Positions 63,458 through 64,000 of a DNA stretch of 64,000 nucleotides are shown one piece after another. The position numbers and the translations under genes are program-made. The stretch covers positions 1,856,001 to 1,920,000 of the forward strand of contig OY760183.1 of the NCBI GenBank assembly GCA_963663275.1, read 5' to 3'. Below the pieces are notes generated by a model. It was not told where the DNA came from. It saw only the letters and a list, made by a program, of their open reading frames with translations, and made no database searches. The DNA is from Chloroflexota bacterium (lineage in GTDB: Bacteria > Chloroflexota > UBA11872 > VXOZ01). Position 1 is the first letter of the stretch, and each line of letters starts with the position of its first letter.

Positions 63458-63661
63458 CTAATTGACGACATAGCGGAAGGGCTCGCCAGAGCCGCCTCTG
63501 CCTTGACGTCTTACACGCTTTTCTTTGATCAATGACCTGAGTACCTGATTGACTCGCTGTTGGTACCCGTTCTGACCAAAAAGCGTTTCAGCCAACTCCC
63601 GCTCAGTTCTTCCGGGGTGGTTCCTAATTAGCACCAGGAGCCTGTCAGCAATCGTCTCCAT
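63458..63661 (-). CDS. Small winged-helix-like hypothetical protein
   Basis: IRNHPGRTERELAETL...VNQVLRSL...RV wHTH-like pattern; lower GC; AAGGTG RBS. Confidence 0.6.
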   Translation of the reverse strand: METIADRLLVLIRNHPGRTERELAETLFGQNGYQQRVNQVLRSLIKEKRVRRQGRGGSGEPFRYVVN

Positions 63662-63675
63662 GTAAGGGGCTCACC

Positions 63676-63999
63676 TTAGGCCTTCAGACTCTCCGCGTAC
63701 TCGGCGATGAACGCATCAACCTCACCGCCCTTCAAGTCTCCGGGACGGAAGTCGCGCAGCGCCTGCACCGCGTCCGCCGGCGCGTAGCCTGCGTACTTCA
63801 CCAAGTACCCTGCCAGGACCGTACCGGCCCCGCCGTAACCGGAGCCTCAGTGAATGAGGGCTTTGTCGTCGCGCAGGGCCGCCGCGTGCAGGGACTCGAC
63901 GGCGGCGTCCAGCGTTGCCAGGTCGCTGCTCGCGCCGCTGAACTGCTCGACCGTCATGCCGAGGCGTTCGATGGTGGCCGTATCGGGTTCGTTGCGGGT
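63676..63999 (-). CDS. PTP/dual-specificity-phosphatase-fold protein (5' truncated by window) with in-frame TGA at the catalytic Cys; candidate selenoprotein
   Basis: Hand translation: TRNEPDTATIERLGMTVEQFSGASSDLATLDAAVESLHAAALRDDKALIH*GSGYGGAGTVLAGYLVKYAGYAPADAVQALRDFRPGDLKGGEVDAFIAEYAESLKA-stop; TGA at 63849-63847. Confidence 0.7.
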
Positions 64000-64000
64000 G

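Follow-up and report, generated by a model that had tools for sequence, protein, structure and literature searches.

The closest described systems to the gene considered here are single-domain phosphatases of the PTP/DSP fold, in particular VHZ/DUSP23, SsoPTP, Tk-PTP and 25xa, with which its product shares a fold of ~150 residues (profile E-values 4e-20 to 1e-9). Phosphatases of the VHZ/DUSP23 type have in common with it an N-terminal F-x-W, a His before the nucleophile, a G-T after the active-site loop and the motif RxxRP. The catalytic residues differ, however: these enzymes have a Cys nucleophile, an Arg, a Ser/Thr and an acid Asp, whereas the corresponding positions here hold an in-frame UGA, apparently read as selenocysteine (Sec), a Gly, an Ala and a Gly or Asn. 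STYX-type pseudophosphatases are PTP-fold proteins with a broken HCX5R motif, which have typically lost the nucleophile. The Sec family does the reverse, keeping the nucleophile, at the cost of the Sec machinery, and losing the helpers, which would argue for catalysis over mere binding.

To our knowledge, nearly all known selenoproteins have thioredoxin-like or other redox folds. In the rhodanese-like selenoproteins, as here, a single Sec lies in a short active-site loop at the N-terminus of a helix, which makes them a plausible analogy for chalcogen transfer, but their fold and family are different, and the protein described here has a seven-residue loop, as phosphatases do. The rhodanese fold family also includes Cys-dependent phosphatases (Cdc25). 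There was no Pfam match to the rhodanese domain (PF00581) at E-values up to 1, the only matches being PTP-SAK, DSPc and Tc-R-P. Five rhodanese-like forms are given in Table 1 of PMC13188914, and the same table has arsenate reductase selenoproteins in its TIGR00014 and NF041106 rows. In the latter, too, the Cys nucleophile of an enzyme attacking a tetrahedral oxyanion has given way to Sec. However, these are glutaredoxin-type ArsC folds with UxxS/UxxC motifs (PMC13188914), and no NCBIfam selenoprotein model matches the present protein (the sole NCBIfam hit was PRK12361, with an E-value of 0.0045 and 15.3 bits against a cut-off of 505). Moreover, an Arg would be expected for arsenate binding, and the phosphatase-fold selenoprotein has no such Arg.

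PMC13188914, a 2026 review, presents an inventory of 119 prokaryotic selenoprotein families and subfamilies, which it describes as the most comprehensive. Its Table 1 contains no PTP/DSP-fold family (the supplements may hold further candidates), and the words "phosphatase" and "PTP" do not occur in the article text. Nor does "phosphatase" occur in the main texts of the deep-Sep paper, the 2022 review and the 2016 ISME J survey, while the GOS paper uses the word solely for a PP2C domain in fusion with a Prx selenoprotein. No PTP/DSP-fold selenoprotein was found in the main texts of PMC13188914, PMC12013277, PMC9312934, PMC5029168 and PMC2398784, and full-text literature searching, which covered articles apart from their supplements, found no natural Sec-containing PTP. 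As far as the main texts and tables of these catalogues go, the phosphatase-fold selenoprotein family is so far uncatalogued, and it would add to a prokaryotic selenoproteome in which none of the 119 tabulated families has a PTP fold (PMC13188914).

The locus is very probably a genuine selenoprotein gene. This interpretation, put forward in a first-pass annotation of the DNA, is supported by a conserved UGA, purifying selection, the presence of sel machinery and aligned Cys homologues. Sec in the well understood active site of a PTP would amount to a natural experiment on Sec versus Cys, in which nature has not only swapped the nucleophile but also deleted three residues regarded as indispensable to phosphoryl transfer.

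The gene, its fold and its relatives

The window, that is, the whole stretch of DNA that was analysed, comprises 64,000 nucleotides of a 3.53-Mb single-contig genome (G000:C1:1856001-1920000). A minus-strand frame quoted in the first-pass annotation is present and reads as given there, with an in-frame TGA at window 63847-63849. The part of the gene that lies within the window (63676..64000, minus strand) covers codons 47-153 and the terminal TAA (63676-63678). The N-terminus, which the annotation had proposed to seek by extending the contig, was recovered in this way: the complete ORF has 153 codons and runs from window 63676 to 64137, with a single internal TGA at codon 97 and an ATG at window-equivalent 64135-64137 (L001:2236-2238), 137 bases past the window end. 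The codons on the two sides of the TGA had been described as host-like and GC3-rich, and their GC3 is indeed 0.83 upstream and 0.82 downstream. In its own genus the gene lies between ileS and glyQS; in a second genus that carries it the setting is different, and comparison of the two neighbourhoods found no conserved partner gene and gave no functional lead.

Translated with Cys in place of the TGA, the protein gives matches to the Pfam families PTP-SAK (PF22784; 1.2e-16, 61.5 bits, cut-off 27) and DSPc (PF00782; 2.2e-9, 37.7 bits, cut-off 33.5), in both cases above the curated cut-off, which bears out the PTP/DSP fold that had been proposed, and also Tc-R-P (1.4e-6). An AlphaFold model made on a 26-sequence alignment (pLDDT 88.3, pTM 0.84) was matched by Foldseek to human VHZ/DUSP23 with probability 1.00 (2img, TM 0.81; 4erc, TM 0.80), to the archaeal Tk-PTP and SsoPTP (TM 0.75-0.80), and to a reconstructed ancestral PTP. 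Among solved structures, a profile search gave 25xa, a bacterial DSP-family protein, at 4.4e-20 and DUSP23 at 9e-18. The protein is thereby a small foldable target (153 residues, pLDDT 88) in which a new activity of a classic fold might be sought.

Relatives with Cys at the site differ from the Sec forms in more than the nucleophile. The search for orthologues with either TGA or Cys, suggested at the outset, yielded TGA in the orthologues, and Cys in more distant homologues that align there: paralogues in the second genus and homologues elsewhere in the phylum read HC[AG]AGLGRTGT. The canonical HCxxGxGR[TSA]G is present in all Cys homologues examined (five second-genus paralogues and 15 phylum homologues). 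A library of 1.84 billion proteins gave 755 hits; in the best 150 of these, every full-length Cys protein keeps HCxxGxGR, and no Cys form with an Arg-less loop was found. The only further hits of putative Sec type among the 150 are four clusters of 97-99 residues (P0032, P0035, P0036 and P0045), which stop at ...L[VL]H, the presumed place of the UGA. No other homologue of the family was found in the own-genus genomes, and the second genus keeps one canonical paralogue. A maximum-likelihood tree, built from 90 sequences, unites the Sec forms in one clade (SH-aLRT 96) on a long stem of 1.05 changes per column, placed among canonical Cys/Arg enzymes; judging from this tree, they share one origin.

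Active-site remodelling and possible chemistry

Profile alignment to VHZ/DUSP23 places UGA codon 97 (63847..63849, minus strand) in the column of the catalytic Cys of PTP/DSP enzymes (HCxxGxxR in VHZ), in agreement with the position that the annotation had assigned to it. Gly103 aligns to the P-loop Arg, Ala104 to the Thr that follows this Arg, and Gly68 to the Asp of the IPDF acid loop, which we take to be the general acid of VHZ. The replacement of the P-loop Arg by Gly had been noticed before, as had a shortening of the general-acid loop, which turns out to be one residue shorter than in VHZ. The remodelled P-loop, H96-U-G-S-G-Y-G-G-A-G-T106, occupies 63820..63852 on the minus strand, with Gly for the canonical Arg and Ala for the Ser/Thr; the remodelled acid loop, F66-S-G-A-S-S-D72, with Gly68 at the canonical acid Asp position, occupies 63922..63942 on the same strand.

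These changes characterise the family as a whole. Its P-loop is HUGSG[FYH]GGAGT or, among the 26 genome genes, H-U-G-[SAG]-G-[FY]-G-G-A-G-T, in which H96, U97, G98, G100, G102, G103, A104, G105 and T106 are invariant, and it can also be read as G-x-G-x-x-G. The 26 sequences and a metagenome locus, L099, all depart from the HCX5R(S/T) signature, the Arg having become Gly and the Ser/Thr Ala. At the general-acid position Gly68 is found in all 26, and Asn in P0036 and L099. Three phosphoryl-transfer helpers have thus been replaced (P-loop Arg by Gly, the next Ser/Thr by Ala, general-acid Asp by Gly/Asn), and this loss persists across lineages as distant as 45% identity. Asp72, four residues after Gly68, is invariant in the wider alignment, and Lys13, a Ser in canonical enzymes, is nearly invariant among the 26 sequences. 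The canonical stretch RPGS[VI]ET..Q reads RPGDL.G in the Sec family.

What might such an active site do? In the model, Sec is predicted to lie at the base of the P-loop, where helix 102-116 begins, within a ring of glycine backbone amides. The glycine-rich anion cradle is retained; the guanidinium that grips the phosphate, the hydroxyl that assists in the second step and the proton-donating acid for the leaving group are lost. With all three helpers gone, phosphomonoester hydrolysis is not the most likely chemistry, and classical dephosphorylation appears unlikely. A redox or chalcogen-transfer role seems likelier, and we would call it an evenly balanced proposition. The selenolate may serve as a nucleophile or a redox centre towards some small oxidant or chalcogen species, possible substrates being a hydroperoxide, a persulfide, thiosulfate or a selenium donor. 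The intermediate, presumably of the Se-O (Se-OH), Se-S or selenenylamide kind, would be resolved by an external thiol, since no Cys is conserved elsewhere in the family. The active-site Cys of PTPs tends to form a cyclic sulfenamide; the idea of a selenenylamide fits this tendency, and a structure of the cyclic-sulfenamide type, 9e9m, is among the Foldseek fold matches. A redox role would also be consistent with most selenoproteins being redox enzymes, as stated in PMC13188914.

The retained features of the fold could also be read differently, with the selenoprotein still a phosphatase or phosphotransferase that acts on an unusual substrate, and with Sec or other basic residues compensating for the lost Arg, Asp and Ser/Thr. 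Sec is a better nucleophile and leaving group than Cys, which could offset the lost residues, and besides the fold itself the protein retains His96, the Gly-rich P-loop backbone, the RxxRP motif (R128, R131) and the invariant Asp72. In principle, the nearly invariant Lys13, R128 or R131 could substitute for the lost Arg. However, the three auxiliary residues are replaced together in every lineage, and the full-length Cys homologues among the best library hits all keep the Arg. Mutation of the P-loop Arg in PTPs cuts activity by orders of magnitude, which likewise counts against retained phosphate chemistry, and we regard it as rather improbable. Our tentative proposal, in which our confidence falls somewhat short of even, is that the family represents the first natural selenoenzyme on a PTP scaffold, in which phosphate chemistry has been abandoned in favour of a peroxidase-like or S/Se-transfer selenolate centre. 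If true, the PTP fold would gain a new catalytic class that has no Cys-form counterpart.

Selenocysteine machinery and the downstream stem-loop

The genome that carries the gene was found to possess the sel machinery on which the first-pass annotation had made its reading depend. Hits over the curated cut-offs were obtained for selA (558 bits), selB (367 bits), selD (352 bits), which contains an in-frame TGA of its own, and tRNA-Sec (67 bits), and selB together with tRNA-Sec was found in all five of the other carriers sampled. In SelD the peptide at the Sec site is CAGUAGK and the hairpin CGCGCAG-GUG-CUGCGCG. Two further genes have UGA at known Sec positions, with similar hairpins of the G-GU-N loop type: FdhA (peptide SCNRTUH, hairpin GUCGCCG-GUC-UGGCGAC) and an AhpC/TSA protein (peptide WASWURC, hairpin GUUGCCA-GGU-UGGCAAC). 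Separately, a DUF427 gene with an in-frame TGA was found in this genome only (1/41).

The candidate SECIS of the phosphatase-fold gene is a stem-loop, CGGGGCCG-GUA-CGGUCCUG, at 63814..63832 on the minus strand, nucleotides 18-36 counted from the U of the UGA. The bases that are frozen among relatives, GGGGCCG-GUA-CGGUCCU, take up nucleotides 19-35 (window 63831-63815), and an extra C-G pair extends the stem to 63832-63814. The apical G-GUA-C loop begins 22 nt past the UGA. According to the legend of Fig. 2 in PMC13188914, the bSECIS model calls for a stem of 4-16 bp, a spacing of 16-37 nt and an energy of at most -7.5 kcal/mol; the candidate, with a stem of 7-8 bp, a spacing of 22 nt, -11.1 kcal/mol and a G-G-U-A-C loop, falls within these limits. 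The fold energy of the 19-nt hairpin has a z-score of -3.0 relative to shuffles. For the 40-nt region after the UGA the z-score is -0.18, with 79 of 200 shuffles equally good, and this value is not used as support; in L099 the minimum-energy fold of the 40 nt is a different structure. Such a hairpin by itself is not specific, as a genome-wide filter for a TGA plus a hairpin passed 149 sites, mostly noise. The SelD, FdhA and AhpC/TSA genes, whose read-through products belong to known selenoprotein types, were among those that passed.

A SECIS had been expected right after the UGA, in the shape of two successive hairpins. A conserved hairpin is found there. It is not either of the two that were drawn, however, but overlaps both and is mutually exclusive with them. 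Both can be drawn in the gene's own sequence, yet are absent from its minimum-energy fold, and their pairing is broken in relatives. In the first, 82.9% of cells are paired and four of the seven pairs are broken in up to 7 of 20 distinct sequences; in the second, the figure is 83.3% overall and 66.7% for the inner helix. The two hairpins were accordingly rejected as SECIS elements. In the central hairpin, by comparison, all 140 cells of the seven pairs (20 distinct sequences) are paired. One pair alternates between G.U (14 sequences) and G-C (6 sequences), none changes on both sides, so that compensatory covariation is absent, and six of the seven never vary, an invariance that speaks neither for nor against pairing.

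The conserved nucleotides also encode a conserved peptide, G-A-G-T-V/A-L, so that only the synonymous sites carry independent weight. At these, constraint is evident. Codons +5 to +12 are each represented by a single codon in 17 of 17 own-genus species. Synonymous divergence (pS) in the own genus is 0.508 upstream of the UGA, 0.075 in codons +1 to +12 and 0.508 from codon +13 to the end, and in the second genus it is 0.204, 0.057 and 0.241, respectively. Among four-fold degenerate codons with an amino acid common to all 26 genes, those from +5 to +11 have an invariant third base in 4 of 6 cases, compared to 0 of 20 elsewhere (one-sided Fisher test, 0.001), with the qualification that the sequences are related and that this stretch of codons was picked after viewing the data. 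Of the frozen synonymous positions, 21, 24, 30 and 33 form pairs among themselves, and a fifth, 27, corresponds to the loop U.

Upon arrival of the ribosome at UGA codon 97, the stem-loop 18-36 nt downstream, within the coding sequence, would recruit SelB carrying Sec-tRNA(Sec); Sec would be inserted at position 97, and 56 further codons would be translated to give a single-domain protein of 153 residues, with the smallest type of dual-specificity phosphatase fold. We infer these steps from the conservation of the UGA, the frozen stem-loop and the presence of the Sec machinery. Could the UGA instead be read through without Sec, by a near-cognate tRNA (Trp, Cys or Arg) or a suppressor tRNA, with stimulation by the hairpin? 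RNA structures downstream of a stop codon can stimulate read-through in general. However, the codon stands exactly at the position of the catalytic Cys, a hallmark of Sec sites, the hairpin matches the bSECIS model in loop sequence and spacing, and the Sec system is complete in this genome, with selB and tRNA-Sec in each of the other carriers sampled. Furthermore, TGA is an ordinary stop codon of this very gene in 6 of 26 orthologues (TAG is used in 17 and TAA in 3), which also led to the rejection of a genome-wide reassignment of TGA. Read-through by an amino acid other than Sec is therefore very improbable, and the evidence for Sec decoding is strong, if purely comparative.

Conservation of the UGA and selection on both flanks

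When six-frame searches were allowed to continue past stops, the gene turned up with exactly one in-frame TGA in 17 of 17 own-genus genomes (79-87% identity), and likewise in 9 of 9 from the second genus, which belongs to the same class (45-48% identity). The rest of the class (98 genomes searched) and a 401-genome sample of the phylum yielded stop-free homologues only, at 26-38% identity; one such locus, from a genome flagged as unpublished, was left out of all analyses. All 26 genome genes were extracted for alignment, and L099 was added as a third lineage. The TGA lies in the same alignment column in all 27 (17 own-genus species, nine of the second genus and the one metagenome lineage).

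L099 came from a search of metagenomes with a DNA pattern back-translated from the motif at the Sec site, which presupposed no RNA structure. Of the 16 loci it returned, 14 matched by chance and one was a near-copy of an own-genus species; the last was L099, which reads H-U-G-S-G-H-G-G-A-G-T in a full-length frame. A profile scan of metagenome contigs that used the N-terminal alignment confirmed none of 598 pattern matches. Two family-specific peptide patterns, searched in 185,579 species (one genome each), found 24 loci, all in the same two Chloroflexota genera. Overall, the Sec family has so far been found in genomes of Chloroflexota and among metagenome contigs, with the label sponge metagenome on some of these contigs.

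The sequence on both sides of the TGA is under purifying selection. For the own genus, pooled Nei-Gojobori estimates of dN/dS are 0.120 before the TGA and 0.131 after it, and the second genus gives 0.21 and 0.20, respectively, so that neutral evolution of the downstream part, which had been named as a possible objection, does not apply. The best-conserved peptide of the whole protein begins directly after the UGA. The UGA is followed by an in-frame start codon no earlier than +15 in the own genus and +30 in the second genus, and in one orthologue by none, which indicates that the downstream part is translated as a continuation and not as a separate ORF.

Public gene calls have treated the TGA as a stop. 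A public protein collection holds 25 relatives of 96-114 residues, all of which end at the UGA, and gene callers also emit a C-terminal fragment of 42 residues (P0037); the only public name is "hypothetical protein" (64 cluster members). Taken at face value, these calls would make the TGA a true stop, and the gene a conserved truncated protein of 96 residues, a split gene or a pseudogene, but this is scarcely credible, and was rejected on conservation and dN/dS, given a downstream dN/dS of 0.13, a peak of conservation in codons +1 to +14, ahead of any possible start codon, a TGA that is kept across a pS of 0.69 between the genera while the rest has not decayed, and a stop that would break what is predicted to be a single globular domain halfway through the active-site loop. 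With the UGA read as Sec, a systematic annotation error would be exposed, since all public gene calls seen end at this codon and leave a short hypothetical protein of 96-99 residues.

The concern that the TGA might be private to this assembly was also laid to rest, as all 27 relatives carry it, and so do contigs from independent public runs of other studies. In runs X1 and X2 the contigs bridge the TGA, and in X3 and X4 the TGA is reached only at the contig end.

Other genes with an in-frame TGA in the same genome

Outside the window, the remainder of the visible selenoproteome of this genome consists of FdhA (2732775-2734685 on the genome's single contig, G000:C1), an AhpC/TSA-TPR protein (2790626-2791492) and SelD (3050914-3052107). 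Their Sec motifs are SCNRT-U-HAPS, WASW-U-RC and CAG-U-AGK, respectively, and in each a stem closed by a loop of the G-GU-N type lies 22-36 nt past the UGA.

Also outside the window, on the plus strand of the same contig, two tandem genes (294131-294640 and 294692-295216) encode membrane-anchored thioredoxin-like proteins, in which the in-frame TGA falls within the motifs YSNF-U-AGC and YSNY-U-TVS. Pfam matches to these proteins are weak or lacking, and the two genes have in common a downstream hairpin, CCCAUC-GUC-GAUGGG.

A further in-frame TGA, likewise beyond the window, is found in a two-domain DUF427 gene of 277 codons (G000:C1:3512803-3513633, plus strand), which matches Pfam NTP_transf_9 at 7.5e-65. 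The TGA lies within the motif KSTF-U-PIKG, and a hairpin follows it at a distance of 22 nt. The table of 119 prokaryotic selenoprotein families or subfamilies in a 2026 review (PMC13188914) does not include DUF427, and a search of 41 genomes found the gene in only one, namely this one. It may be a pseudogene.

Genes around the PTP-fold selenoprotein gene

On the minus strand, a 67-codon ORF (window 63458-63661) with no match in Pfam begins 14 bases past the stop codon that ends the PTP-fold selenoprotein gene. It was not seen at the orthologous loci of other species among ORFs of at least 60 aa with GC3 above 0.62, and may be specific to this genome.

In the own genus the selenoprotein gene is flanked by ileS and glyQS; in the second genus (loci L044-L052) its setting is quite unlike that. 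Its upstream neighbors there are small antitoxin-like and retropepsin-like ORFs and a Gfo/Idh/MocA-like oxidoreductase, all named from the appearance of their sequences only.

The upstream coiled-coil neighbor

Upstream, just past the window end, the selenoprotein gene is neighbored on the minus strand by a gene for a CCDC90-like/DUF1640 coiled-coil protein of 216 residues (2299-2949 of the own-genome locus L001, equivalent to window positions 64198-64848). The protein contains roughly nine 11-residue repeats in tandem, of the LTGQMADLDNR type, and has a membrane helix at its C-terminal end. In some species, shorter relatives of this protein are encoded at the orthologous loci, in variable locations.
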